Virus record (IMG/VR): IMGVR_UViG_3300020403_001989
Span: 1 to 24,754 of that record
DNA: 24,754 nt
Reading direction: 5' to 3' (one strand)
From: a virus
Lineage: Duplodnaviria; Caudoviricetes
Under the pieces are notes generated by a model. The model searched no databases. It saw only the letters and a program-made list of their open reading frames with translations, and was not told the origin of the DNA. Made by a program: the position numbers and the translations under genes. This document shows positions 1 to 14,979 of this stretch, piece by piece. Numbering within the stretch: the stretch's first letter is position 1; each line of letters starts with the position of its first letter.

Positions 1-941
1 TCAGATACTATGACATTCGCATTGCAGAAGGCATCACTATCAGTGGTCAGCTAACAATTCGTTGGGCAGAGAAGCACCTTAACAAGTATATGAACCAGGT
101 GCTCGGTACAGACAATCAAGATTATGTGATTGCCATTGATACTGACTCATTGTATATCAATATGGGTGGTCTTGTTGAAAAGGCTAAACCTAAAGATCCT
201 GTTAAGTTCCTTGACCGCGTAGCAGAGGAAAAGATTGAGCCAATGCTTGATCTTGCCTATCAACAGTTGAAGGACTATCTCAACGGCTACGATCAGATGA
301 TGGTAATGAAGCGAGAGGTGATTGCATCTAAGGGTGTGTGGACTGGTAAGAAGCATTATGTGTTAAACGTACACAACAGTGAAGGTGTCCAGTACAAAGA
401 ACCCAAGCTCAAGATGATGGGTATTGAAGCAGTAAGATCATCAACTCCAGCTGTGTGTCGTCAAATGTTTAAAGATACACTCAAAGTTATTCTGGAAGAA
501 AAGGAACCTCAAGTACAAAAATATATTCGAGATTTACGTGAAAAGTTTGCAAGAATGCCTATAGAGGATATTGCGTTTCCACGCTCTGTTAACCGGCTAC
601 CGTTCTATAAAGACAGTGTAACGCTGTTTAAGAAGGGTACACCTATACAAGTGCGCGCAGCTTTGACATACAATTTTTACGTGGATCAACATCAACTCAA
701 CAATAAATATGAGAAAATATATTCAGGTGAAAAGATAAAGTTCTGTTACCTGAAACAACCGAATAGGGTTCAAAGCAATGTTATTGCCTTTCCTCAAATC
801 TTGCCTGAAGAGTTTGGTGTTCGCGAGCACGTGGATTACGACACCCAGTTTGAGAAGGCTTTTATTGAACCCGTCAAGAGTATTCTGGATGCTGTGGGTT
901 GGGATGTAGAACCTAGAGCAACCTTGGAGGCGTTTTTCTAA
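1..941 (+). CDS. 43: T4-like family B DNA polymerase gp43, C-terminal part (5' end outside window)
   Basis: Frame is open from base 3 ([16 protein letters not shown]...). It contains the catalytic DTDS motif, [17 protein letters not shown] and the C-terminal clamp-binding tail TLEAFF. The ATG at 90 is internal. Confidence 0.97.
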
Positions 942-1216
942 TGAGCGACAATATCCACAACGCGTTCGACTTTGGATTCAGTCTTGTAGATGAAGAAGAA
1001 CTGGAAGCAGTCCAGAGTGCGCATCAACAAGTTCAATCTACTTCTGCCACAGCTGCAGAACTAGAAGCTAGACTCACTCGTCTATATGACGCGTTTCAAC
1101 CATTGCTTAACAACCTAAAAAAGAGTAGCAACAAGGAATACGTATACTGGCCCGATCGGTATGAGAAGATCGAGGCATTCCAAGATATGCTCGACGGAAT
1201 CTACAAAGGCCAGTAA
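941..1216 (+). CDS. Hypothetical protein (91 aa, helical)
   Basis: TAATG coupling to gp43 and to the next gene. No recognisable motif. Confidence 0.8.
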   Translation: MSDNIHNAFDFGFSLVDEEELEAVQSAHQQVQSTSATAAELEARLTRLYDAFQPLLNNLKKSSNKEYVYWPDRYEKIEAFQDMLDGIYKGQ

Positions 1217-2265
1217 TGGGTCTCCTAACTCTTGTTATGGCGCTTGCTATATCTGGTGTAGCAGCGTGGTACAGCATTGCTGGGCTGGTTGCTATATTCT
1301 CCGGAGCAGCTACCGCAATTATTATAATGGGTGGTGTGCTAGAGGCCGGTAAGTTAGTTACTGCTTCTTGGTTGTATAATAACTGGAAAGAAGTACCGTT
1401 CTTACTAAAGTCCTATCTCACTACGGCCGTAGTTGTATTAATGTTAATCACCTCTATGGGTATCTTTGGCTTCCTGTCAAAGGCACACTTGGAACATTCT
1501 ATATCAGTAGGTGGCACAAATGAATTACAAATCTCTAACTTGGAAAGACAGATTGCGAGACAGCAGTCAATCATTACAGATGCAGAAACGGTACTCTCGC
1601 AATTGGATCAACAAGTCGCTGTACTCATTGAGTATGACAGAATTCGTGGCCCTACAGGTTCGATTGCGGTCCGCGAAAGTCAATCGGAAGAGAGGGGTCT
1701 TCTCAACGAGACGATCGATGCTGCGTATATTCGAATCGATGGACTCCAAAAAGATCTCACGCCGCTGCAACAGGAAAAACTGGCTATAGAGGTCGAGGTT
1801 GGTCCTTTAAAGTACATCGCTGAGTTAATCTATGGTGATCAAGCTCGTGACTTTTTTGACGAAGCCGTACGTTGGGTTATCATGCTTATTGTGTTTGTAT
1901 TTGATCCACTTGCTGTACTTTTGCTCATAGCAGCTAATATGACTTTAACTAAACCTAAGTCTCCAAAGCCACTGAAAGAAATAGACGCTGTAGTTGTCAA
2001 TGAGATAGACGATGACTGGCTAACAGAAAGAGTTGCAGTTGAAGAAGATGAGCCCACTGACGATTACGAGGTTACCGAGTGGCAAGTTGTTAACACCACC
2101 ACTTCAAAAGAGGAGCTAAAAAGTTTATTAAAGAGTGTTGATCAAAAGCTGGTAGACCTGTATACTCACCGGAACACTTTAGAAAACAAACAAGAGAAGC
2201 GTTCACTGCAACGCTTAAAGAAAAAGATTATTGACAAACTGAATAATGAGGAATCCAATGAGTGA
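1216..2265 (+). CDS. Membrane protein with N-terminal TM helices, central coiled coil and a further TM segment
   Basis: About 3 hydrophobic N-terminal segments, a heptad-like middle, the segment VIMLIVFVFDPLAVLLLIAAN, then an acidic/basic tail. Confidence 0.8.
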   Translation: MGLLTLVMALAISGVAAWYSIAGLVAIFSGAATAIIIMGGVLEAGKLVTASWLYNNWKEVPFLLKSYLTTAVVVLMLITSMGIFGFLSKAHLEHSISVGGTNELQISNLERQIARQQSIITDAETVLSQLDQQVAVLIEYDRIRGPTGSIAVRESQSEERGLLNETIDAAYIRIDGLQKDLTPLQQEKLAIEVEVGPLKYIAELIYGDQARDFFDEAVRWVIMLIVFVFDPLAVLLLIAANMTLTKPKSPKPLKEIDAVVVNEIDDDWLTERVAVEEDEPTDDYEVTEWQVVNTTTSKEELKSLLKSVDQKLVDLYTHRNTLENKQEKRSLQRLKKKIIDKLNNEESNE

Positions 2266-3310
2266 CTTCTTTCGTGACATTGTAAAACAACTTAATGATG
2301 AAAACACCACCATCGCCGAAGATGGATTAGCCAGTGCTGAGTACAGTGGTAACATCGATACTGGTAGTTATATTTTAAACGCTGCACTTAGCGGTAGTAT
2401 CTACGGTGGCGTACCTAACAATAAGATCACAGCATTTGCTGGTGAGTCTGCAACTGGTAAGACCTTCTTTGTCATGGGTGTAGTTAAGAAGTTTCTTGAC
2501 GACCATGAGACTGGAGCCGTGTTCTACTTTGACACAGAAGCAGCTGTAACTAAAGAGATGATGAAGCAGAGGGGCATTGACACTAATCGAGTAATCATTA
2601 GTGAGCCAGATACTATTCAACGGTTCCGTCACACAGCACTACAGATCCTAGATAACTACAATAGTACGTCTGGTGAAAAGCCTCCGATGCTTATGGTGCT
2701 TGACTCACTTGGTCAGCTTTCAACTACTAAGGAAGTAGAGGACACTGCATCAGGTAGTGAGACTCGTGACATGACTAAGGCCGCTACTCTCAAAGCTACG
2801 TTCCGAGTACTTAACCTGAAGCTAGCCAAAGCTAATGTACCGATGCTGGTTACTAACCACGTATACGAAGTTGTAGGATCATATATCCCAACTAAAGAGA
2901 TGGCTGGTGGTAGTGGTCTCAAGTACACTGCATCTCAGATCTGCTTTCTGTCAAAGAAGAAGGAAAAGGATGGTAAAGATGTAATCGGCAACATCATTAA
3001 GGTTAGGATGGCCAAGTCTCGTCTTACAAAAGAGAACAAGTTGGTAGAGGTACTGCTTACATACGACAAGGGTCTTGATAGGTACTATGGTCTTCTTGAG
3101 CTTGCTGAGAAGTATGAGATTGTAAAGAAGGTAGCTAACCGATTTGAGATGCCTGATGGCACAAAGGTATACGCTAAGGCGATCTTGAAAGACCCGACAA
3201 AGTACTTTACAGAAGACCTGCTTGCTCGTATCGACGAAGCTGCTCAGATGGAGTTTACATACGGCTCCAACGACGACTATGAGATTGAAGAAGACGAACT
3301 TGCAGTATGA
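2258..3310 (+). CDS. uvsX: UvsX RecA-like recombinase
   Basis: DTGSYILNAALSGS, Walker A GESATGKT, FDTE, VLDSLG, GGSGLKY. Start placed at MSDFF because GAGGA lies upstream. T4 synteny. Confidence 0.96.
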   Translation: MSDFFRDIVKQLNDENTTIAEDGLASAEYSGNIDTGSYILNAALSGSIYGGVPNNKITAFAGESATGKTFFVMGVVKKFLDDHETGAVFYFDTEAAVTKEMMKQRGIDTNRVIISEPDTIQRFRHTALQILDNYNSTSGEKPPMLMVLDSLGQLSTTKEVEDTASGSETRDMTKAATLKATFRVLNLKLAKANVPMLVTNHVYEVVGSYIPTKEMAGGSGLKYTASQICFLSKKKEKDGKDVIGNIIKVRMAKSRLTKENKLVEVLLTYDKGLDRYYGLLELAEKYEIVKKVANRFEMPDGTKVYAKAILKDPTKYFTEDLLARIDEAAQMEFTYGSNDDYEIEEDELAV

Positions 3311-3564
3311 CACCCAAGTACGCCATCCTTGAAGCAAAGGATGATGACAGCGTTTGTCCTATAATGATAGTTGAAGGTGAATACGAGAATGTAGTATACA
3401 CCTACGATGTAGTAAAGATATCTGATGACGGTGTTCTTTCTTACACATACAACATTCTTAGGGGTGAGGCAAGCGGTAAACATTTCGAAAATACACTAGG
3501 TGACATTCTAGTGCAGATGATTGAGGATAAAGTTTTTGATGACGATAGAGACGAACATTCTTAG
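3307..3564 (+). CDS. Small acidic protein in the gp40 position between uvsX and gene 41
   Basis: ATGA overlap with uvsX. The gp40 link rests on synteny only. Confidence 0.65.
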   Translation: MTPKYAILEAKDDDSVCPIMIVEGEYENVVYTYDVVKISDDGVLSYTYNILRGEASGKHFENTLGDILVQMIEDKVFDDDRDEHS

Positions 3565-4939
3565 TCAGCTAATTCACAGTGAGCAGTACGCTCGTAAAGT
3601 ACTTCCGTTCTTAAAAGAAGAATACTTCCAAACTATTACTGATCGGTTACTTGTAACTAAGATCAAAGATTATATGGAAAAGTATAATGTACCTCCATCT
3701 AAGGATGCATTGTACATTGAGTTAGAGAATACTGATTCACTAAGTGAGGCTGACTATAGCAACACCGTATCACAAGTCGAGCAGCTAAAGCAAGACGACG
3801 ACGTAAATGAACAATGGCTTATTGATAAGACTGAAGAGTTCTGTCAAGAGAAGGCTGTGTACAATGCCATCATGGAATCGATTCATATTATCGATGGTAA
3901 GAGTAAGAGCAAGACCAAGCAAGCTATTCCACAAGTACTATCGGAAGCACTTGCTGTGTCTTTTGATAATCACATCGGACACGACTTCATAGAAGATTAT
4001 CAACAACGATTTGACTTTTACCATCATAAAGAAGAACGAATACCTTTTGATCTTGACTATATGAATAGAATCACTAAAGGTGGTCTTCCTCGTAAATCTC
4101 TAAACATCATCCTGGCTGGTACTGGTGTTGGCAAGTCTCTCGCTATGTGTCATTTTGCTGCTAGTAACATGATGGAAGGTAAGAATGTATTGTACATAAC
4201 AATGGAGATGGCAGAAGAGAAGATTGCAGAACGTATCGATGCAAACTTACTTAACGTCAAGGTCGATGAGCTCATTAACCTTCCAAAGGATATGTACGAT
4301 AAGAAGATAGATGATCTTCGGCAGAGGACTCCTGGTCGTTTAATTATCAAAGAGTATCCTACTGCATCAGCTCACTCTGGACACTTCAGACATCTAATCA
4401 ACGAATTAAAGATAAAGAGAAACTTTAGTCCTGATATCATCTATATAGATTATCTGAACATATGTAGCAGTAGCAGAACAAAGGCTATAGGAGGCACTAT
4501 AAACTCCTATACATTCATAAAAGCAATAGCAGAGGAGCTGCGTGGACTTGCTGTCGAAAAGAACGTACCAATCGTCTCAGCCACTCAGACAACTCGTTCT
4601 GGATTCAGTAGTAGTGATTTAGGATTAGAAGATACGTCAGAGTCTTTTGGACTACCAGCTACAGCAGATTTTATGTTCGCTATTATTAATAGCGACGAGT
4701 TAGAGCAGCTTGGTCAGCTAATGGTCAAGCAGTTAAAGAACAGATATAATGATCCAACCTTGTTTAAAAGATTTGTTATTGGTGTCGATCGTGCTAAGAT
4801 GAGACTGTATGATGTTGAGCAAACCGCACAAGACGATATTGTTGATGACCGTCCAGTAATGGACAACACAGAGGTTGGTAAAAGTCTGAATGCAAGTTTT
4901 GGTAAACCTAAAAAGGACTTTAGTGATTTATTTGCATAA
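3539..4939 (+). CDS. 41: gp41 replicative DnaB-like helicase
   Basis: Walker A AGTGVGKS, YITMEMAEE, IKEYPT, IYIDYLNI, SATQTTR, TSESFGLPATAD, KQLKNRY. ATG 3539 follows GAGGA. Confidence 0.97.
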   Translation: MTIETNILSQLIHSEQYARKVLPFLKEEYFQTITDRLLVTKIKDYMEKYNVPPSKDALYIELENTDSLSEADYSNTVSQVEQLKQDDDVNEQWLIDKTEEFCQEKAVYNAIMESIHIIDGKSKSKTKQAIPQVLSEALAVSFDNHIGHDFIEDYQQRFDFYHHKEERIPFDLDYMNRITKGGLPRKSLNIILAGTGVGKSLAMCHFAASNMMEGKNVLYITMEMAEEKIAERIDANLLNVKVDELINLPKDMYDKKIDDLRQRTPGRLIIKEYPTASAHSGHFRHLINELKIKRNFSPDIIYIDYLNICSSSRTKAIGGTINSYTFIKAIAEELRGLAVEKNVPIVSATQTTRSGFSSSDLGLEDTSESFGLPATADFMFAIINSDELEQLGQLMVKQLKNRYNDPTLFKRFVIGVDRAKMRLYDVEQTAQDDIVDDRPVMDNTEVGKSLNASFGKPKKDFSDLFA

Positions 4940-4957
4940 CAACAATAAGGAAACTAG

Positions 4958-5125
4958 ATGCACGTCCGAGTTTTATTTACATGCAACGACGAGTTACGAA
5001 AGGCATTGAATCATTATCATGGAAGAACCGGTTTAGCAAGTATGAAAGAAATGAAGAGTTGGTTTTATCAATATGGTCATTCTAGAGATATAGAGCTACT
5101 GGGGAAGTTGAGAGAAAACAAATAA
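4958..5125 (+). CDS. Small hypothetical protein (55 aa, not in ORF track)
   Basis: AAGGA RBS. MHVRVLFTCNDELRKALNHYHG...LRENK*. The stop abuts the next ATG and the ORF fills the gap. Confidence 0.7.
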   Translation: MHVRVLFTCNDELRKALNHYHGRTGLASMKEMKSWFYQYGHSRDIELLGKLRENK

Positions 5126-5872
5126 ATGAAAGTATTATTAGTAGGTGAGTTGTGTAACGACGAGTATGTCTACTGTGACGTCAATAGGGTAAGTCCAGAA
5201 GCACCTGTTCCTGTTGCTGACATAAACTGGATTAGCAAAATGGATGGTATGGCTGGTAATGTTGCCAACAACCTTCGTGCCTTCGGTATTGATGTTCTTC
5301 ATTATCGTAACAGAGCTGACCAAGGTATTAAGAAGGTAAGGTACGTTGATATTAAATCCGGTCATCATCTGCTTAGAGTAGACACCACACATCCAAACAT
5401 TACTCCTTTTGATGTAAGAAAAGTAAGCCATGATCTTGAACAGTATGATGCAATTGTAATTAGTGATTACAACAAAGGGTATGTTACTTACGAAGCAGTT
5501 CAGCAACTGCGTACATTATTCAATGGTCCTATCTTGATAGATAGTAAGAAGGATGATCTTGGCCAGTTTGAAGGATGCATTGTTAAGATTAATGAGGATG
5601 AGTACAACAAAGCTAAATCGTTACCCCGCTCAGTGATTGTAACTCTTGGTAGCAAAGGTGCAATGTACAACGAGCAAGTGTTTCCATCTCCATCAGTCGA
5701 AATGTTTGATGTGTGTGGTGCAGGTGATACTTTCCTCGCTGGTCTCACATATAAAATACTTCAAGGCGAACCAATAGGTCCTTGTATTGAATATGCAAAC
5801 AAGTGTGCAGGCATTGCCGTACAGCATAGAGGCACATACACTCTACGTAAAAAAGATATTGAGTCATTATGA
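5126..5872 (+). CDS. PfkB-family sugar kinase, HldE/RfaE kinase-domain-like (heptose-7-phosphate kinase)
   Basis: RVSPEAPVPV, GMAGNVANN, ISDYNKG and DVCGAGDTF are HldE kinase signatures. No adenylyltransferase domain is fused. Confidence 0.9.
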   Translation: MKVLLVGELCNDEYVYCDVNRVSPEAPVPVADINWISKMDGMAGNVANNLRAFGIDVLHYRNRADQGIKKVRYVDIKSGHHLLRVDTTHPNITPFDVRKVSHDLEQYDAIVISDYNKGYVTYEAVQQLRTLFNGPILIDSKKDDLGQFEGCIVKINEDEYNKAKSLPRSVIVTLGSKGAMYNEQVFPSPSVEMFDVCGAGDTFLAGLTYKILQGEPIGPCIEYANKCAGIAVQHRGTYTLRKKDIESL

Positions 5873-6732
5873 AGATTCTCGTTACTGGTTATAAAGGTTT
5901 CATTGGTAGTCACGTATACAAATATCTTGTTGAAGAAGGACATGATGTAGTTGGTTATGATTGGGATGAAAGTTATGGGTGTCTACCATACGTAAGAGAT
6001 CTAGAATGGGTAATCCATCTTGGTGCCATTAGCAGTACTACTGAGAGAGACGTATCAAAGGTATTTGCTCATAATTATGACTTCTCCATCAAGCTATACA
6101 ACGAATGTTGTGCGTATGGTGTTAGCATGCAGTATGCATCTAGTGCAAGTGTGTATGGTGACTTAAAGTCTTTTTCAGAAGATAGTGATTGCAGGCCTCT
6201 TAATGCTTATGCTTGGTCTAAGTATATGTTTGATCGTTATGTAAACAATATCGATATCTGTAACAAAATTACATGCCAGGGTTTCAGATACTTTAACGTG
6301 TACGGTACTAATGAAGAACACAAAGGTGATCAAGCATCTGTGTTCACCAAATTCAAGAACCAGGCTATCAAAGAAGGTAAAATTAGCTTATTTGAAAACA
6401 GTGAAAACTACAAACGTGACTTTGTTTGTGTAGATGATATAGTACAAGTACACAAGCAGATGCTTTGGAAGAAAGATCGTGGTGTGTTCAATGTTGGTAG
6501 TGGAACTGCTACTAGCTTTCAAAAGGTAGCTGATCTTTGTAGTAAACGACTTGGTGTGCCTATTGAATATATTCCAATGCCTGATAATCTCAAGAATCAA
6601 TACCAGGAATACACCAAAGCAGATATTAGCAAACTAAATAGTATTATCGATATAAAGTGGACTACTCCTAAACAGTGGATAGATACTAACTTAGATGCAG
6701 TTGAAGATATCAGAAAATCAACTTATACCTAA
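5869..6732 (+). CDS. hldD: ADP-L-glycero-D-manno-heptose 6-epimerase (extended SDR)
   Basis: TGxxGFIG, HLGAISSTTE, YASSASVYG, PLNAYAWSK, RYFNVYG, RDFVCVDD, YQEYTKAD. Confidence 0.9.
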   Translation: MKILVTGYKGFIGSHVYKYLVEEGHDVVGYDWDESYGCLPYVRDLEWVIHLGAISSTTERDVSKVFAHNYDFSIKLYNECCAYGVSMQYASSASVYGDLKSFSEDSDCRPLNAYAWSKYMFDRYVNNIDICNKITCQGFRYFNVYGTNEEHKGDQASVFTKFKNQAIKEGKISLFENSENYKRDFVCVDDIVQVHKQMLWKKDRGVFNVGSGTATSFQKVADLCSKRLGVPIEYIPMPDNLKNQYQEYTKADISKLNSIIDIKWTTPKQWIDTNLDAVEDIRKSTYT

Positions 6733-7336
6733 TCCTACAATCACCAAGCCGGTCGATTGTGATCTCTTGCTACAAGCAGATCATCGTTACTTTGACAAAG
6801 ACGGTTACGAACTAAACTACCAAGAAAGATTGTTCCATAAGAACAGTGGTGTCATTATAGACGAAGGCCATCTGTTTCATACCGCTAATCACGTATCGTG
6901 GTTTTACGATAAAGAAGAAAGTCAGAATCTATTGGTACTTGATCACAGTACACAAAACATGAGATGGAACTATACTGGCGCGGCTCGTGAACAAATACAA
7001 GAGCTTGCTGTCCACAAGCCATCTTTAAACAAACTACTTGGCGTTGTGCAAAAATGGGGCATTGACTTTAGTCTTGACTATGTGTATACTGGGCACTGTT
7101 TAGAAGTGTTCCATATCGAAGCGGACTATTTGAATTACGATGAAGCCATGGTAGATAAAGAGAAAGCAGAGCAGTTGATCTTAAACACTGATTGGTGGGA
7201 TGGTGCTCGTTGTTTGTTACGTGACTCTAAGAAGTGGTCACATTTGAATAGTGATGATCAAGCGGACTACAAATCCAAGTACTTTGGATGGAAACGAGCT
7301 TTTGATAATAGAAAGGTGTTTAACTTTGCGGCTTGA
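6695..7336 (+). CDS. Hypothetical protein (213 aa) inside the sugar-nucleotide cluster
   Basis: Long ORF overlapping both neighbours. Trp/Asp-rich segments (KWGIDFSLDY) but no family recognised. Confidence 0.75.
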   Translation: MQLKISENQLIPNPTITKPVDCDLLLQADHRYFDKDGYELNYQERLFHKNSGVIIDEGHLFHTANHVSWFYDKEESQNLLVLDHSTQNMRWNYTGAAREQIQELAVHKPSLNKLLGVVQKWGIDFSLDYVYTGHCLEVFHIEADYLNYDEAMVDKEKAEQLILNTDWWDGARCLLRDSKKWSHLNSDDQADYKSKYFGWKRAFDNRKVFNFAA

Positions 7337-7724
7337 AGGCTTAGTTGAAAAAGGTTGGGGGCACGAGTTCATATTTGCTACAAACGATAAGTACTGTGGC
7401 AAGTTGCTCAAGTTCAATACTGGATCAAGATTCTCAATGCACTTCCATGATGAGAAGGATGAGACTTGGTTTGTGTTGGAAGGTAAATTCTTAGTCAAGT
7501 ACATTAATACTCTTAACGCTGATCTCAATGAAATTATATTGAATAAAGGTGACACGTGGCGTAACGAACCACTGGAACCTCATCAGATTATTTGTTTAGA
7601 GGAAGGTACTATTATTGAAGTGTCTACCCCGGATAGTGTAGAGGATAACTATCGGGTTTGGCCTGGCGATAGCCAGAATGGAGATAGTTATGAAGAAGAG
7701 AAGTTACGACCAGACGGTAGTTGA
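7326..7724 (+). CDS. Cupin protein (mannose-6-phosphate isomerase C-terminal/sugar isomerase-like)
   Basis: KGWGHE, SMHFH..KDETW, H and EVST cupin motifs. Probable TTG start at 7326 after AAGGTG. Confidence 0.8.
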   Translation: MRLEGLVEKGWGHEFIFATNDKYCGKLLKFNTGSRFSMHFHDEKDETWFVLEGKFLVKYINTLNADLNEIILNKGDTWRNEPLEPHQIICLEEGTIIEVSTPDSVEDNYRVWPGDSQNGDSYEEEKLRPDGS

Positions 7725-8916
7725 CCAGCTCAAAGGAAGCGTCCATATTGAACATACTTTAGCTAAGCAAGGCTCGCTTCAGCTACGCAAGTTGTTTTCT
7801 GAGAACCCATACATAAACACTTTCGGCGCCTATAATGGGCAGCAGGCGGTGCAGCATGTCAAAGCCGGTCTCAAAGCCATTTACGTTAGTGGGTGGCAAG
7901 TCGCAGCAGCAGCAAACTCCACGGATGAAACTTATCCTGACCAGAGTCTGTATGCTGTCAACTCTGTTCCTAATGTCGTTCGTAATATCAATAATAGCTT
8001 TCGTCGACAAGATCAAATCTCTGTATCGGAAGGTGGTGACGGCTTTCCGTTCGCACCTATCGTGGCTGATGCAGAGGCAGGCTTTGGAGGCGCACTTAAC
8101 TCTTATGAGCTTGCAAGGAATCTCATCGAGGCAGGAGCGGCAGCGGTACATTTCGAAGATCAACTCGCATCTGAAAAGAAGTGCGGACATCTGGGCGGAA
8201 AAGTACTTATACCTACTAGTCAGGCTATTCGCAATCTTAATGCTGCTAGGCTTGCTGCTGACGTGGCCGGGACCGACACCCTGGTCATTGCCAGAACCGA
8301 CGCAGAGTCAGCTAGACTACTAACTAGCGACATCGACGAGATTGATCGTAAGTTTATTAAGAACGGTAAGCGCGCTTACGAAAAAACCTTACGCACTCCT
8401 GAAGGCTACTATGAGATTGAAGGTGGTCTTGCGATGGGATGTGAGCGTGGACAAGCGTATGCAGAGTATGCTGACCTCGTGTGGTGTGAAACTTCTAAGC
8501 CCTGCCTACACGAAGCAAAGCGATTCGCTGATGCAGTGAAAGGTGCTGTGCCAGATGCTATGCTTGCATACAACTGCTCTCCTTCATTTAACTGGCGACA
8601 GTCTATTCCTGGTGACCAAGAACTTCAAGACTTCCAATGGGAGCTTGGTAAAATGGGATTCAAGTTTCAATTCATTACACTTGCTGGCTTCCACGCTACA
8701 AACTATTCTGTGTTTGACTTTGCTCGCAAGTACAAGAAAGATGGGATGTTTGCTTACTCTAGGTTACAGGAGATGGAGTTTGCAGCTCAGTCAGATGGAT
8801 ACACAAGTGCTAAGCACCAGCGTGAAGTTGGTGTCGGGTACTTTGATATTATAACTAATGCATTGGGGGCCTCTACTGCCGGGTTGGCAGGATCAACAGA
8901 GACGGAGCAGTTCTAA
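7690..8916 (+). CDS. aceA: Isocitrate lyase
   Basis: SGWQVAA, YPDQSLY, PIVADAEAGFGG, HFEDQ, catalytic KKCGHLGGK, ARTDA, LAYNCSPSFNW, QFITLAGFH, HQREVG, STETEQF. ATG 7690 follows GGAGA. Confidence 0.97.
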   Translation: MKKRSYDQTVVDQLKGSVHIEHTLAKQGSLQLRKLFSENPYINTFGAYNGQQAVQHVKAGLKAIYVSGWQVAAAANSTDETYPDQSLYAVNSVPNVVRNINNSFRRQDQISVSEGGDGFPFAPIVADAEAGFGGALNSYELARNLIEAGAAAVHFEDQLASEKKCGHLGGKVLIPTSQAIRNLNAARLAADVAGTDTLVIARTDAESARLLTSDIDEIDRKFIKNGKRAYEKTLRTPEGYYEIEGGLAMGCERGQAYAEYADLVWCETSKPCLHEAKRFADAVKGAVPDAMLAYNCSPSFNWRQSIPGDQELQDFQWELGKMGFKFQFITLAGFHATNYSVFDFARKYKKDGMFAYSRLQEMEFAAQSDGYTSAKHQREVGVGYFDIITNALGASTAGLAGSTETEQF

Positions 8917-8996
8917 TGAAACCTACACCACTTTCAAGCGATGTGATGTTCTTTTGTTTAGTAATTGCTATTGTCTGTACTGCATGGAGCTTGTAA
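8916..8996 (+). CDS. 26-aa hydrophobic peptide
   Basis: MKPTPLSSDVMFFCLVIAIVCTAWSL*. TAATG overlap with aceA; the stop abuts the next ATG. Confidence 0.55.
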   Translation: MKPTPLSSDVMFFCLVIAIVCTAWSL

Positions 8997-9335
8997 ATGT
9001 TTAAGTCAATTGGTTTTTGGATCTACGATCTATACAACTTCTTTTTTAACTTAAAGATGAATCCATTGAGATTTATCCCTAATGCTTTTACACAGTTTAT
9101 TCTTATGTTTTACCTATCTGTAATGTGGACGGTAGTGTTTACGTTGTGGATGGGACACTCAATCTATTTTGGTATTGGAAGTGTAGGTGGCCACTTACTT
9201 ATAGTTGGCGCTTTCTTTATCACGGCATTAACATTTCAAGATGCTGAAAAGAATGGTCATCTTTGGGTCAAACGGATGCCTTTGCCTGATCCTAAAAAGA
9301 ACAAATGTGTGTGGGACTTGGAGAAAGAAGGATGA
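8997..9335 (+). CDS. Membrane protein with two TM segments
   Basis: Two long hydrophobic segments, coupled at both ends. Confidence 0.75.
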   Translation: MFKSIGFWIYDLYNFFFNLKMNPLRFIPNAFTQFILMFYLSVMWTVVFTLWMGHSIYFGIGSVGGHLLIVGAFFITALTFQDAEKNGHLWVKRMPLPDPKKNKCVWDLEKEG

Positions 9336-9544
9336 AAGAAAAGTTACTAAAAGCAGTTAAAGCCAAACACCAAGCAGTGATGGAAGAAGCACTTGTTAAC
9401 ATTGAAGTATATGAGAACAGTGTTGGTATTGGTGAGCACCCAGACTTGGTCGGTGCTGTTGAAGACCAAGTTGATAAGTACGTTCACGCCTTAGAAATGG
9501 TAGAGGGTGTAGACAAGATCCTTCACTCATTAAGCTATGACTAA
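9332..9544 (+). CDS. Small helical-hairpin hypothetical protein
   Basis: ATGA overlap; MKEKLL...NSVGIGEHPD. Confidence 0.75.
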   Translation: MKEKLLKAVKAKHQAVMEEALVNIEVYENSVGIGEHPDLVGAVEDQVDKYVHALEMVEGVDKILHSLSYD

Positions 9545-9683
9545 AATTTTTGTTTGGTATTGGATTATAAGTCCAGTTGTATTATACTTCGGTATGCTGT
9601 ATGGTGATTACCTTGACGGTGAGTACACACCACCTTGGCAAAAGAAAAAGAACGGAGTTAATTCAGGAGCAAAATTCGGATGA
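9537..9683 (+). CDS. 48-aa single-TM peptide
   Basis: MTKIFVWYWIISPVVLYFGMLYG...AKFG*. Overlaps the upstream stop and has an ATGA junction downstream. Confidence 0.6.
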   Translation: MTKIFVWYWIISPVVLYFGMLYGDYLDGEYTPPWQKKKNGVNSGAKFG

Positions 9684-9781
9684 GTGAAATAGTAATGTGG
9701 GCGTTGCTGGTACCAGCCGCTATATTGTTTCAAGCATTACTCATAGCACTTGTCCTTGATTGGAGTTCACACGATGAATAA
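9680..9781 (+). CDS. 33-aa single-TM peptide
   Basis: AGGAG RBS; MSEIVMWALLVPAAILFQALLIALVLDWSSHDE*. Confidence 0.6.
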   Translation: MSEIVMWALLVPAAILFQALLIALVLDWSSHDE

Positions 9782-10211
9782 AATTTTACTAGGTTTAGTA
9801 ACATTGTTACTCGTTGGTTGTGGTCAGAATGATCCAGGCTTAGCAAAGCAAGTGGGATTGTCAAAAAACCAACTTGCTGATATTGAAGCAAGGATATGCT
9901 CATACGATGGTAACGATTGCTTCCTTCCTATTATGGCACTTAACGTCGAAGGAGGGATGCAAGTTGCAGTTGTAGATTCACTTCCGGGTGAGGCCAAGTA
10001 TGCTGCTTGTGGTGCATGTCATGGCGCACAAGGTGGAGGCGGTGTTGGTCCTGCATTAGCAGGTCAGACCGTAGAGTACATTGTCGGCCGACTAAACCAA
10101 TATAAAGCAGGTGAAAAGGTTGGTAACCAAAGTAACCTTATGTGGGGTCAGGCAGCAGGACTTTCTGATCAAGACATAAACGAACTAGCGGAGTATATTG
10201 TAACGCTATGA
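9774..10211 (+). CDS. Monoheme class I cytochrome c (c553/c4-like), predicted lipoprotein
   Basis: Signal peptide with lipobox LLVG-C, heme motif CGACH, PALAGQ, distal Met in NLMWGQA, LSDQDINELAEYI. GGAG RBS before ATG 9774. Confidence 0.92.
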   Translation: MNKILLGLVTLLLVGCGQNDPGLAKQVGLSKNQLADIEARICSYDGNDCFLPIMALNVEGGMQVAVVDSLPGEAKYAACGACHGAQGGGGVGPALAGQTVEYIVGRLNQYKAGEKVGNQSNLMWGQAAGLSDQDINELAEYIVTL

Positions 10212-10318
10212 AAATAGATAAAGAATTTATTAAAGACGTTTGGAAGCACGACAAGTATTTTTGGATCTTTTTATTCGTTATGTTCCCTCTGATGATGTAT
10301 GCGAATTACGCGTCATGA
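10208..10318 (+). CDS. 36-aa single-TM peptide
   Basis: MKIDKEFIKDVWKHDKYFWIFLFVMFPLMMYANYAS*. ATGA overlaps at both ends, GGAG upstream. Confidence 0.65.
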   Translation: MKIDKEFIKDVWKHDKYFWIFLFVMFPLMMYANYAS

Positions 10319-10881
10319 AGAATGTGTTTGCAAAATCCATGACGACGTTCTTTCGGTTCTTTGCCGATACGTTCTTTGCTAAACGATATGGCCACCGTGC
10401 TGTAGTACTTGAGACCATTGCTGGTGTTCCTGGTATGGTTGGTGGTATGCTTATTCACCTCAAAAGTCTAAGACGACACGAGAGAGGATACGGTCCACAG
10501 ATAAGAGAACTGTTAGCCGAGGCAGAAAATGAGCGTATGCATCTCATGTTTTTTATTGAGATTGCTAAACCGAATTGGTTTGAAAGACTGCTGATTGTAA
10601 CAGCTCAGTTTGTATTTTTGTTATTCTATACAATCCTCTATCTTATCTCTTCAAGTACAGCTCATAAAATGATAGCATACTTTGAAGAGGAGGCAGTCAA
10701 AAGCTACACTGAGTATCTGGAGCTAATTGAATCTGGAGAAATTGAAGACGTTCCTGCTCCACAGCTTGCAATTGAATACTATGGTCTCAAACGCACTGCT
10801 ACTCTTAGTACCATGGTTATGAGTGTACGAGATGATGAACGCAAGCACAGCAAAGTCAATCATAGGATGGCTGGATTCTAA
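10315..10881 (+). CDS. aox: Alternative (ubiquinol) oxidase, AOX, di-iron carboxylate
   Basis: LETIAGVPG, EAENERMH, FEEEA and RDDERKH supply all four iron-binding motifs. Start revised to ATG 10315 (ATGA coupling). Confidence 0.94.
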   Translation: MKNVFAKSMTTFFRFFADTFFAKRYGHRAVVLETIAGVPGMVGGMLIHLKSLRRHERGYGPQIRELLAEAENERMHLMFFIEIAKPNWFERLLIVTAQFVFLLFYTILYLISSSTAHKMIAYFEEEAVKSYTEYLELIESGEIEDVPAPQLAIEYYGLKRTATLSTMVMSVRDDERKHSKVNHRMAGF

Positions 10882-10994
10882 TGGATGCTGCTCTGATTGG
10901 AATTATTGTTATTATGACTTTACCAATGATTGGTCTTGGTATTACTTATTACCTATCTTACCTTTCTTCGGAGTCTGTTAGAGAGGATGATTAA
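10881..10994 (+). CDS. 37-aa single-TM peptide
   Basis: MDAALIGIIVIMTLPMIGLGITYYLSYLSSESVREDD*. TAATG overlaps at both ends. Confidence 0.65.
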   Translation: MDAALIGIIVIMTLPMIGLGITYYLSYLSSESVREDD

Positions 10995-12040
10995 TGGACT
11001 CCATAAATCTCGTCCTATCTAACCGTTGCCAAGCAGCGTGTGTTTGGTGCCCAAGCACTAGAGGCACTAAACAAAAGTACGATATGCCTTTTGAGCTTGT
11101 TGAGCGGATTGTCGAAGAAGTAACAAGCGAGTCGTTTCCATTTGAGATAAAATCTGTTAGACTTAGTGAAAACGGTGAGGCTATTCTTAATCACGACTTC
11201 TTTAAGATAGCTAGGTACATAAGAGAAAAGCTACCAAATAGTCGTATTGACCTAATGAGTAATTTCTTGTCTCTGGACAAGGACAAGTCTGCTATTATTG
11301 TTAAAGAAAGACTTGTGGATGCTCTTACAGTCAACATTGATGGCCACGACAAAGAAAGCTACGAAGCTGTTAAACGTGTTGATTACGAAACAGTCATTCA
11401 AAATCTTAAAGACTTTAACTCACTTCACGTTCATCATGGCAGTACTATTGAGGTGTTAGTAAATGCAATGCCTTATTATGAGTATGATCAAGCAGTTAGA
11501 TGGGTACTAAGAACTAAGCCACTTAATTATGTTGATCACAGAAGTGATAAGATTAGCAAGAAGATTGATAGGTCCACTAGGGCTGAAGATATTATAAAAA
11601 GGCATTACAGTGATGAAGTGCCTTACAGCAACTTCGATCTGGTGTTAAAGAGTCTTCATTTTCTTCATAACAATCCGTATATGAGATTCAAAAAATCTCG
11701 GCCAGGTTTATGGGCTGAACGTCAAAGTATTGCAGACGGAACTGCCAAGCCAGTTATGCAAAAAAATGAACTGTCGTGTCCCGAACTGCTCAGAGTAATG
11801 AACGAAGCATTTATTTCTCCAGCTGGAGATTGGTATCCATGTTGTTTAGATGATAACCAAGACATATCTCTTGGAAACGTATACGATAATACCATATTGG
11901 AAATCTACAATTCTGAGAAACGACAGACGTTTATTCAAATGCTAATAGACAAAAAGTTTGATGAAATTGGATATCCTTGTAATACTGTTGAGGCTTGTCA
12001 AACTATTGTATTCAATGACGTAAAGGATTATTGTGAGTAG
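10994..12040 (+). CDS. Radical SAM protein with SPASM/twitch-type C-terminal domain
   Basis: CQAACVWC (CxxxCxxC), NGEA, C-terminal C...GDWYPCC...LGN...PCNTVEAC. Confidence 0.88.
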   Translation: MDSINLVLSNRCQAACVWCPSTRGTKQKYDMPFELVERIVEEVTSESFPFEIKSVRLSENGEAILNHDFFKIARYIREKLPNSRIDLMSNFLSLDKDKSAIIVKERLVDALTVNIDGHDKESYEAVKRVDYETVIQNLKDFNSLHVHHGSTIEVLVNAMPYYEYDQAVRWVLRTKPLNYVDHRSDKISKKIDRSTRAEDIIKRHYSDEVPYSNFDLVLKSLHFLHNNPYMRFKKSRPGLWAERQSIADGTAKPVMQKNELSCPELLRVMNEAFISPAGDWYPCCLDDNQDISLGNVYDNTILEIYNSEKRQTFIQMLIDKKFDEIGYPCNTVEACQTIVFNDVKDYCE

Positions 12041-12407
12041 AACAGCCAACAAAGTACTTACTAACGATGATGAGATGCTCGATGATGTCGTCATTCAAAC
12101 CGATAGCGGCAACGAGTACTCTGTTGGTGAGATCAAGCATTCAAACAGGTTACTAAAAAGTGTAACACCAAAGTACACTATCGACTGGTATCTTAAATGG
12201 TTCAGCAGTCTTGTAGTACTAGCTGCAATGAGTATCAGAGGTATCGAGGAGCTGATCTACTACGATCTGATATTAAGCATCGTTGGTATCACAGGATGGC
12301 TTGCTGTATCGGTGCTTTGGAAAGATCGAGCACTGATACTACTTAATGGTGTTGGCCTCATTATGTTTATGAACACTCTGTTTACCAAATACTTGTTCGT
12401 GACATGA
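12033..12407 (+). CDS. Small membrane protein (about 3 TM segments)
   Basis: WYLKW...WKDRALILLN. GTG start after AAGGA. Confidence 0.75.
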   Translation: MSRTANKVLTNDDEMLDDVVIQTDSGNEYSVGEIKHSNRLLKSVTPKYTIDWYLKWFSSLVVLAAMSIRGIEELIYYDLILSIVGITGWLAVSVLWKDRALILLNGVGLIMFMNTLFTKYLFVT

Positions 12408-12568
12408 TTGTGTGTATCTGTAAAGGTGTGTCTGATTCTACTGTCCGTGAACTTCTTAACCACATTGACCTGTCCAAAGTAAAAGAAGTAACTGGAGCAA
12501 GTACTCAATGTGGAACGTGCAGCCAGCTACTTGAACTTATAGCCAGTGAAAGTAAGAACGACAAATAG
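12404..12568 (+). CDS. bfd: Bfd-like [2Fe-2S] ferredoxin (54 aa, not in ORF track)
   Basis: MIVCICKGVSDSTVRELLNHIDLSKVKEVTGASTQCGTCSQLLELIASESKNDK* has the CxC...CGxC Bfd pattern. ATGA overlap with the upstream gene. Confidence 0.88.
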   Translation: MIVCICKGVSDSTVRELLNHIDLSKVKEVTGASTQCGTCSQLLELIASESKNDK

Positions 12569-12571
12569 TTG

Positions 12572-12600
12572 TTGACTAAATCCGTCACTGCCCTGATAAT
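12572..12600 (+). promoter_or_regulatory. Sigma70-type (early) promoter
   Basis: TTGACT-17 bp-GATAAT. Shares CCTGATAATG with the promoter at 13074. Confidence 0.75.
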
Positions 12601-12605
12601 GGACG

Positions 12606-12637
12606 ACATGAATGGGCACACCCGTTCATGTTTTTTT
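12606..12637 (+). terminator. Intrinsic terminator
   Basis: ACATGAATGGG-CACA-CCCGTTCATGT stem followed by a T run. Confidence 0.75.
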
Positions 12638-12660
12638 GTTTAGTTACATAGGAAATGATT

Positions 12661-12915
12661 ATGTCTATTTTTGACAAAGTGTTTAACGTACTGGTAGTTG
12701 AAGGCCGTGAGGCATCTGCAAAGCAAATGGCCAGCTGGTTTGGTACTACAACCAACACCATCGCTGCTCGAGTCTCTGAGCTTCGTACTCAGGAAGGCTT
12801 CGCTATCTACGCTAACAAGCGTACCGACAGCAAAGGACGTACTTCTACGTTCTACCGCGCTGGTAACCCCACTCGCGCCGTTGTAGCTGCTGGCTACCGA
12901 GCTCTTGCTGCGTAA
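12661..12915 (+). CDS. Small basic winged-helix-like DNA-binding protein
   Basis: SAKQMASWFG..NTIAARVSELR followed by a beta wing (TFYR). Strongly biased codons; AGGA RBS. Confidence 0.65.
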   Translation: MSIFDKVFNVLVVEGREASAKQMASWFGTTTNTIAARVSELRTQEGFAIYANKRTDSKGRTSTFYRAGNPTRAVVAAGYRALAA

Positions 12916-13073: not shown

Positions 13074-13102
13074 TTGACAAATACATCCGTAGACCTGATA
13101 AT
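13074..13102 (+). promoter_or_regulatory. Sigma70-type (early) promoter
   Basis: TTGACA-17 bp-GATAAT, upstream of GGAGG RBS and ATG 13137. Confidence 0.8.
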
Positions 13103-14902: not shown

Positions 14903-14979
14903 CGGAGTATAGCGCAGCCTGGTAGCGCATCTGCTTTGGGAGCAGAGGGTCGTAGGTTCGAATCCTACTACTCCGACCA
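14903..14979 (+). tRNA. tRNA-Pro (anticodon TGG) with encoded CCA
   Basis: Acceptor CGGAGTA/TACTCCG, D stem GCGC/GCGC, anticodon arm TCTGC-TTTGGGA-GCAGA, T arm GTAGG-TTCGAAT-CCTAC, 3' ACCA. Confidence 0.97.

Follow-up and report, generated by a model that had tools for sequence, protein, structure and literature searches.

A variable gene slot behind isocitrate lyase holds alternative oxidase and cytochrome c genes in a T4-like marine phage

The ways in which phages control host electron flow have been well described for cyanobacteria, but much less so for the heterotrophs that respire much of the ocean's carbon. Cyanophages carry psbA, PTOX, petE and petF electron-transport genes. Here we describe a block of genes encoding isocitrate lyase (ICL), alternative oxidase (AOX), a c-type cytochrome and several other proteins in the virus record IMGVR_UViG_3300020403_001989. 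The whole of this linear IMG/VR record, 24,754 bases with an estimated completeness of about 9% of the genome, is referred to as the window. Among the closest described systems, phage aceA genes (PMC4053976, Hurwitz 2013) and an aceBA operon in a T4-like virus (PMC5332604, Nishimura 2017) have been published, and huge phages were found to hold 98 ICL and 22 malate synthase genes (bioRxiv 10.1101/2025.02.27.640493). An AOX-annotated gene is present in cyanophage S-SCSM2R (PMC12801897), and T4-like phages of marine Gammaproteobacteria/SAR86 carry the Fe-S auxiliary genes IscU, A-type carriers and radical SAM (PMC5332604). AOX, cytochrome c and Bfd are not named in the Fe-S section of PMC5332604, and the words 'oxidase' and 'cytochrome' are absent from its main text.

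The window resembles the published aceA/aceB cases in having an intact ICL in a T4-like marine phage, and the huge-phage set in having ICL without malate synthase, which is common there too. It differs from the phage aceBA operon, as its ICL stands beside respiratory genes and a malate synthase match is missing from the window and from 10 long relatives: none was found among the window proteins, which represent only about 9% of the genome, and PF01274 matched in 0/10 long records, eight of them ICL-bearing. As in cyanophages, a variable island of a T4-like phage encodes a quinol oxidase together with a small electron carrier, and by analogy the electron-valve logic is likely the same. The window differs in that its oxidase is a true AOX with gammaproteobacterial affinity and its carrier a c-type cytochrome, and family-library scans of its 42 proteins detected no photosynthesis gene. 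Its radical SAM gene, the IscU genes near some ICL and AOX loci and a similar inferred host group recall the Fe-S genes of SAR86 phages.

Both ICL and AOX are common in uncultured marine phages and are annotated as hypothetical in the sole GenBank relative, phage C48C1 (OQ984149.1; 156 kb; listed in Kyanoviridae without a stated host). This phage has AOX (26279-26830, 60%), ICL (44175-45416, 76%) and an uncharacterised protein that we call m8997 (47680-47964, 71%; likewise hypothetical). It differs from the window in that AOX lies 18 kb from ICL and in that no cytochrome c or Bfd match was obtained. No publication on C48C1 was found. Neither AOX nor ICL is mentioned in the available portion of Wegner 2024 (PMC11480375) or among the main-text terms of Tian 2024 (PMC11360552). 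No description of the combination was found in the literature on phage AOX, ICL, cytochrome c, Bfd and SAR86 phages, large supplements on auxiliary metabolic genes and most subscription papers being outside the scope of the search.

The block is an auxiliary-gene island of a known kind whose respiratory content is undescribed, and m8997 is a good new lead. The reading that we favour, and consider probable, is that the block is the variable tail of a T4-like replication run. It forms a slot between a lineage-fixed ICL and a conserved promoter-like site, in which single genes are gained and lost. This slot holds a recurrent set of AOX, cytochrome c and small membrane proteins, which likely gives a heterotrophic gammaproteobacterium (probably SAR86-like) extra electron exits, together with unrelated passengers.

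The slot and its turnover

The block and its borders comprise the following features, all on the + strand.

90..7724 (+), upstream coupled run continuous with the block: DNA polymerase, UvsX, gp41 helicase, PfkB kinase, epimerase, cupin
7690..8916 (+), isocitrate lyase of the short (E. coli/Bacillus-like) type, 408 amino acids (aa), PRK15063, KKCGH
8916..8996 (+), 26-aa hydrophobic open reading frame (ORF), optional
8997..9335 (+), uncharacterised 112-aa protein m8997, recurrent AOX neighbour, invariant His66
9332..9544 (+), phrog_1811, unknown function, 70 aa
9537..9683 (+), 48-aa ORF with one hydrophobic stretch
9680..9781 (+), 33-aa hydrophobic ORF, optional
9774..10211 (+), monoheme class I cytochrome c, predicted lipoprotein, CGACH at 79-83, Met123, LLVGC at 12-16
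10208..10318 (+), 36-aa hydrophobic ORF, optional
10315..10881 (+), alternative oxidase (true AOX), 188 aa, PF01786 at 225.6 bits
10881..10994 (+), 37-aa hydrophobic ORF
10994..12040 (+), radical SAM protein with a SPASM/twitch domain, CX3CX2C, passenger
12033..12407 (+), DUF6552 membrane protein (library match), start at 12033 GTG or 12075 ATG
12404..12568 (+), BFD-like [2Fe-2S] protein, 54 aa, PF04324 at 39.9 bits against a cut-off of 26, passenger
12572..12600 (+), promoter-like site of the sigma-70 type (10 of 12), preceding an 86-aa gene (12655) and forming the right border of the slot
12605..12640 (+), 12-pair hairpin (12605-12632) and T run, terminator-like or a hairpin in the leader of the following transcript

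A previous interpretation made from the letters of the window, the sequence-only reading, had proposed that ICL, cytochrome c, AOX, radical SAM and Bfd form one coordinated run of about 14 coupled ORFs. The tight coupling is real: between 7690 and 12568 each ORF overlaps or abuts the next, and all 12 junctions from ICL to the BFD-like gene are 1-8 nt overlaps or abutting. The count is 13, or 14 if the upstream cupin is included. The T4-like core genes that it had placed upstream are also present, as DNA polymerase, UvsX and gp41 were matched in PHROGs (E 1e-82 to 1e-127). However, the 10 junctions from polymerase to cupin are equally tight, with overlaps or gaps of no more than 18 nt, and a further overlap of 35 nt joins cupin to ICL. 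ICL therefore does not mark a 5' boundary of the run. Tight coupling of the block genes means little, since they close a coupled run of over 12 kb whose first members are replication genes. No 5' boundary or promoter of its own was found for the block, which is coupled back to the polymerase, and promoter-like sites occur at chance level (20 vs 17.2). The T4 late promoter motif TATAAATA is absent from the window.

With regard to close relatives, 17 of 80 loci chosen by gp41 showed at least 87% identity, and six of these reach past cupin. ICL directly follows cupin in all six, and as far as these sequences show it is the fixed anchor of the slot. Behind it, slot length is 3.7 kb in the window and L002, 2.1 kb in L073, 368 bp in L248 and 355 bp in the near-identical L003/L004. 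The L073 slot contains m8997, phrog_1811, three other ORFs, DUF6552 and a Bfd-like gene, with AOX 8.4 kb further on. Cytochrome c, AOX and radical SAM are absent from the slot in 4/4 other spanning relatives (L073, L003, L004, L248), and deletion scars were found in three of these four. The short slots of L003/L004 and L248 represent losses, because the first codons of m8997 remain, joined to later sequence. The same fusion ORF occurs in L074/L094, which have about 50% polymerase identity and a different gene order, which suggests that the slot has been exchanged between lineages.

Variation of the same kind is seen within the population. Environmental contigs skip single genes at 8912-8997, 9683-9816, 10211-10328 and 12400-12590, namely the 26-aa ORF (contigs of X9 and X11), the 33-aa ORF (X11), the 36-aa ORF (X10) and the Bfd-like gene (X10). 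Gene content and order are thus not conserved in close relatives as they would be in a co-inherited operon. The sequence-only reading had named independent assortment among related phages as evidence against its proposal, and this is largely what we observed, since relatives lose or replace genes behind ICL and variants skip single genes. Because the closest relatives retain ICL only, the locus is better described as a swappable gene slot, one that likely helps infected bacteria to go on respiring, than as a fixed five-gene programme.

Intact enzyme genes and a recurrent respiratory set

The genes are phage-encoded and intact, and their catalytic motifs (KKCGH in ICL, CGACH in cytochrome c, the AOX ligands and CX3CX2C in radical SAM) are preserved, as the sequence-only reading had stated. 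Ten block genes, three of them tiny ORFs, could be compared with a relative, and in all ten nonsynonymous change (pN) lies far below synonymous change (pS), which indicates purifying selection. This was judged by pN vs pS only, as dN/dS values of 0.0 reflect saturated synonymous sites.

The ORF at 7690-8916 is an intact ICL with predicted activity: it exceeds the cut-off of the NCBIfam equivalog PRK15063 (615.6 bits vs 562), whereas the methylisocitrate lyase model prpB gives 104 vs a cut-off of 354. Its catalytic KKCGH loop, at residue 163, is kept in 93/93 full-length viral matches. We found 152 ICL stretches and 181 AOX stretches in viral contigs; neither protein has a PHROG family. In the ICL tree, the phage sequences form a phage-only clade (SH-aLRT 99) without a bacterial sister among the 15 bacterial rows kept, and this clade appears to be old. 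A donor was not found, as the best bacterial ICL reached 56-60% in the 16/64 parts of the genome collection that were searched. In the order of the gammaproteobacterial genome G401 (the G401 order), matches of 57-60% in 28/121 genomes fall outside the phage clade. This order is split between two ICL types, the short type in those 28 genomes and long or weaker matches in most others.

The ORF at 10315-10881 is, by its sequence, an AOX rather than a PTOX and is predicted to oxidise quinol. When aligned to trypanosome AOX, positions E33, E73, H76, E124, E175 and H178, which we take to be the di-iron ligands, and Y131, presumably the catalytic Tyr, are invariant in 22/22 rows. In a tree of 58 rows, which includes neither alphaproteobacterial nor PTOX rows, 38 phage AOX group with 10 from the G401 order (support 100/99), and the window AOX falls in a phage-only subclade of 21 rows. 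AOX was found in 97/201 genomes of the G401 order (0.7-1.8 Mb), at loci of 30-38% GC, and in 11/400 Gammaproteobacteria. It was also found in 33/351 Alphaproteobacteria, with identities of 62% or less vs 69% for full-length matches in the G401 order. A search of 50,697 phage records gave no cyanophage match at E 1e-5. The phage AOX thus appears to nest among the AOX of streamlined Gammaproteobacteria; genome size and GC content suggest that the G401-order host group is probably SAR86, and the infected host is likely a heterotrophic gammaproteobacterium. The heterotrophic host assumed by the sequence-only reading is therefore likely, and the gene trees it had proposed place AOX beside the G401-order AOX and leave ICL phage-only.

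Two arrangements around AOX were also recorded. In 7/25 G401-order loci (L375, L378, L381, L385, L386, L389, L399) the gene for an exported protein of 143-153 aa, resembling pseudoazurin, is directly coupled to the host AOX. In L152 (4827-5557) and L116 (11414-12113), IscU and an A-type-carrier-like gene lie close behind AOX. IscU was present within 4 kb in 9/80 ICL loci and 10/80 AOX loci.

The cytochrome c has a single CxxCH, matches c4/c552/c554 (best E 1.6e-16), and exhibits a conserved Met123 as predicted axial ligand and a lipobox-like LLVGC at 12-16. It gave no match in GenBank phages, and among longer host c-type proteins only 28-42% matches in 3/5 genomes.

To assess recurrence, the best 80 of the 152 ICL stretches were grouped into 32 clusters and the best 80 of the 181 AOX stretches into 39 clusters, many loci being incomplete. 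Within 3 kb of ICL we found m8997 in eight clusters, AOX in six, cytochrome c in six, and Bfd and radical SAM in one each (this population). Within 3 kb of AOX, m8997 was found in 18 clusters, cytochrome c in 11 and ICL in four. Of 17 families present in at least six clusters, m8997 is the most frequent near AOX. In profile-based counts, 17 of the 20 clusters that contain m8997 have it no more than 2 kb from AOX (5.3 expected under uniform placement); for cytochrome c the figure is 11 of 12 (2.9 expected under the same placement). Several gene orders occur.

Fifty long records, 31 chosen by ICL and 19 by AOX and most of them fragmentary, were searched whole. The 31 ICL-chosen records contain AOX in 12, m8997 in nine and cytochrome c in six, the last two always with AOX (Fisher p 1e-5 for m8997 and 1e-3 for cytochrome c, the records not being independent). 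Eight of the records are complete or nearly so (at least 80%); among these, m8997 is present in 5/5 with AOX and in 0/3 without AOX. ICL, m8997, cytochrome c and AOX also form one block in L007/L008/L123, and AOX-m8997 pairs occur in differing settings: after gp41, between the polymerase and UvsX, and near ribonucleotide-reductase-like genes. The expectation that the set recurs together thus holds for AOX, cytochrome c, m8997 and sometimes ICL in distant phages, and fails for radical SAM and Bfd, which are rare. Viral contigs with all five predicted genes were found for this population only.

The m8997 family is a small, testable unknown common to these phages and to abundant streamlined bacteria. 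No Pfam, PHROG or NCBIfam match was obtained for the protein. A near-length search gave 274 relatives, and their alignment has eleven invariant positions including His66. The structural model (pLDDT 74) predicts an N-terminal helix and a two-helix membrane hairpin. Foldseek found no PDB match at E 0.001, the best being a complex I accessory subunit at E 2.1, and VIA returned generic helical hairpins only (best Z 6.5). ESM Atlas neighbours are all hypothetical and mostly viral. Each of three deep subfamilies was found adjoining AOX, and the window type is phage-only. In bacteria, m8997 occurs in 1/401 sampled Gammaproteobacteria (G401) and in 69/139 genomes of the G401 family, and a shorter form occurs in 14/46 genomes of the order of G001 (Pelagibacterales). 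AOX and m8997 are 1.0 kb apart in G517 and 4.4 kb apart in G513. Directly behind the short form, a small CxxCH protein (87-97 aa) lies on the same strand in 6/18 loci of the G001 order (L326, L335, L337, L341, L342, L343); this arrangement is probably one orthologous locus.

Proposed mechanism and alternative explanations

We infer the host, the timing and all of the physiology as follows. The block genes would be read together with the DNA replication genes. ICL would convert isocitrate to succinate and glyoxylate, as expected from established enzymology, with carbon saved and less NADH formed, and the host would either supply malate synthase or make direct use of glyoxylate. AOX would return quinol to quinone without pumping protons, which could keep dehydrogenases turning and limit reactive oxygen, and cytochrome c could support a parallel complex III-IV branch. 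As AOX bypasses cytochrome c, the two would form parallel branches and not one chain. Each gene would be useful alone, so that they may share slot and promoter without forming an obligate unit. If this is correct, ICL and AOX would alter both the amount of carbon respired and the amount of energy conserved by a cell under infection.

Several observations weigh against the favoured reading of a variable slot with a recurrent respiratory set. The clusters share ancestry, and a uniform null ignores island structure. A family that we take to be dCMP-deaminase-like lies near AOX in 6/6 clusters. AOX and m8997 are 13-21 kb apart in four of the five near-complete genomes that hold both. Their link is also unclear in the G401 family (7/11 vs 8/20, p 0.27), in incomplete genomes counted from separate listings on the assumption of the same sample. 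The window-type m8997 and the phage ICL are without a close bacterial sister, so the window phage's own host is not fixed. RNA run X20 gave six contigs, three short ones of which are near this phage and none of which is on ICL, and it was not used as evidence. In addition, proteins of about 80 aa that have a hydrophobic end (6159-6401 in L110, and relatives) form a second uncharacterised family, which lies within 2 kb of AOX in 8/8 clusters and has no NCBIfam match. As these two families reach 6/6 and 8/8, closeness to AOX alone is not proof.

The alternative that survives best, although we consider it unlikely, is plain hitch-hiking, in which the slot genes are independent and AOX, cytochrome c and m8997 co-recur through the gene pool of one host group and recombination at shared junctions. 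Gene-precise gains and losses, the variable gene orders, the lack of AOX-m8997 linkage in host genomes, the unlinked copies in complete phage genomes and the further families clustering near AOX are all consistent with it. It accounts poorly for the finding that all three deep m8997 subfamilies adjoin AOX in differing genomic settings, and for the match between m8997 and AOX in the near-complete genomes.

In a bolder form of the favoured reading, a respiratory bypass kit would be carried by the T4-like phages that infect SAR86-type bacteria, as a heterotroph counterpart of cyanophage PTOX/petE. This kit, comprising AOX, m8997 as an unrecognised accessory membrane protein (its invariant His66 conserved, and perhaps binding heme or quinone) and the membrane-anchored cytochrome c, would have been reassembled many times and here joined to an ancient phage ICL, and it would uncouple carbon flow from proton pumping in infection. 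We regard this as speculative and doubtful.

The original proposal, in which ICL, cytochrome c, AOX, radical SAM and Bfd are inherited together as one coordinated programme and rewire an iron-limited host, is improbable. In its favour, all five genes are intact and belong to the coupled run, sequencing runs from 2014 and 2025 contain the whole block, and L007/L008/L123 share four-gene blocks that include three of the five. Iron limitation also induces the glyoxylate shunt in marine heterotrophs, according to two papers (PMC6618146, PMC11069385), so that iron stress would be a reasonable selective setting for ICL. Nevertheless, relatives lose or replace everything behind ICL, and the run has no 5' boundary. 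The five genes occur together in this population only, radical SAM being present in 1/32 ICL clusters and Bfd in 2/50 long records. ICL lies within 3 kb of AOX in 4/39 AOX clusters and is present in 0/19 AOX-chosen long records. Iron is itself required by four of the five, namely AOX, cytochrome c, radical SAM and Bfd, the BFD-like protein falls below the cut-off of the Bfd equivalog PRK10509 (25.7 vs 75), and no iron-uptake or flavodoxin family was matched among the 42 window proteins scanned. As an inherited unit, the five-gene programme is largely refuted.

That an assembly chimera or captured host DNA explains the block is hardly credible: no single contig of runs X1, X3 and X5 covers it whole, but the second assembly L002 is near-identical, overlapping contigs from two studies cross its junctions at even depth, its GC content overall and at third codon positions (GC3) agrees with the core genes, and its ICL falls in a phage-only clade. 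At least half of the block words are present in six public runs, all marine metagenomes, from two studies (2014, 2025). The bridging contigs come from X1 (study P1), possibly the source of the window record itself, and from X3/X5 (study P2), with pieces such as 6396-8256, 8562-10081, 9981-10551, 10536-11220 and 11025-12687. The chimeric join with host DNA that the sequence-only reading had allowed for was thus not seen.

Probable passenger genes, putative transcription signals and flanking genes

In the favoured reading of a variable slot, radical SAM, the Bfd-like gene, DUF6552 and most of the small ORFs are passengers. The radical SAM protein, whose cysteine-rich SPASM/twitch domain is C-terminal, is below the cut-off of every named subfamily (NCBIfam equivalogs). 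As a query in viral contigs, in a search that reaches close relatives only, it retrieved the contig of L002 alone, and 45 relatives elsewhere are without gene context. Run X11 showed low depth over this gene and was not used as evidence. The BFD-like protein has a Fer2_BFD domain and four cysteines. Tyr2, Leu5 and Lys40 of solved Bfd, which we take to be part of the bacterioferritin interface, are replaced in it by Ile, Ile and Thr. It resembles Bfd (PDB 4e6k, 6e6q) in length and in the four cysteines (E 4e-9), and differs in these residues and in the missed equivalog cut-off. It was found in 0/5 candidate host genomes, an uninformative blank. A BFD-like match of 38% is also present in Pseudomonas phage Y5 (OQ572407.1 49988-50152).

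DUF6552 is common in these phages, often at other sites, and phrog_1811 is near AOX in 5/9 clusters. Among the small ORFs, the 26-aa ORF has homologues in L027 and L248 and the 48-aa ORF has 60-72% identity in L007, L010 and L145, both with pN below pS. The 36-aa ORF shows 85% over the matched part in L003, L074 and L094, the 37-aa ORF has 43-48% homologues in L003 and L116, and the 33-aa ORF has no homologue outside this population.

With regard to the right border, the sequence-only reading had the run end at one terminator. The hairpin and T run are real, but the terminator role is not certain. The hairpin starts 5 nt after the promoter-like site, and its T run is interrupted in L003, L248 and L073, while the promoter-like site is kept there. 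The hairpin may thus serve as leader of the following transcript, either in addition to acting as a terminator or in place of it. Between 6000 and 14000 there are 7 terminator-like sites vs 4.9 +/- 2.7 in shuffles. Paired changes were seen in this hairpin in L073.

Two strong sigma-70-type promoter-like sites, at 12572-12600 (with the hairpin at once behind it) and 13074-13102, open a run of small unknown genes, which is probably an early region. Between gp41 and ICL, the window (5126-7724) encodes the PfkB kinase, a nucleotide-sugar epimerase, an unknown 213-aa gene and cupin. This stretch is also variable, as L248 is without the kinase and epimerase and L252 without the kinase. Further downstream, the window contains a tRNA-Pro (TGG) at 14903-14979. 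Between 16113 and 24527 it encodes DUF6267, an 860-aa cytidyltransferase-like/DUF5824 protein, a 2OG-Fe(II) oxygenase, a methyltransferase and glycosyltransferase-like genes.

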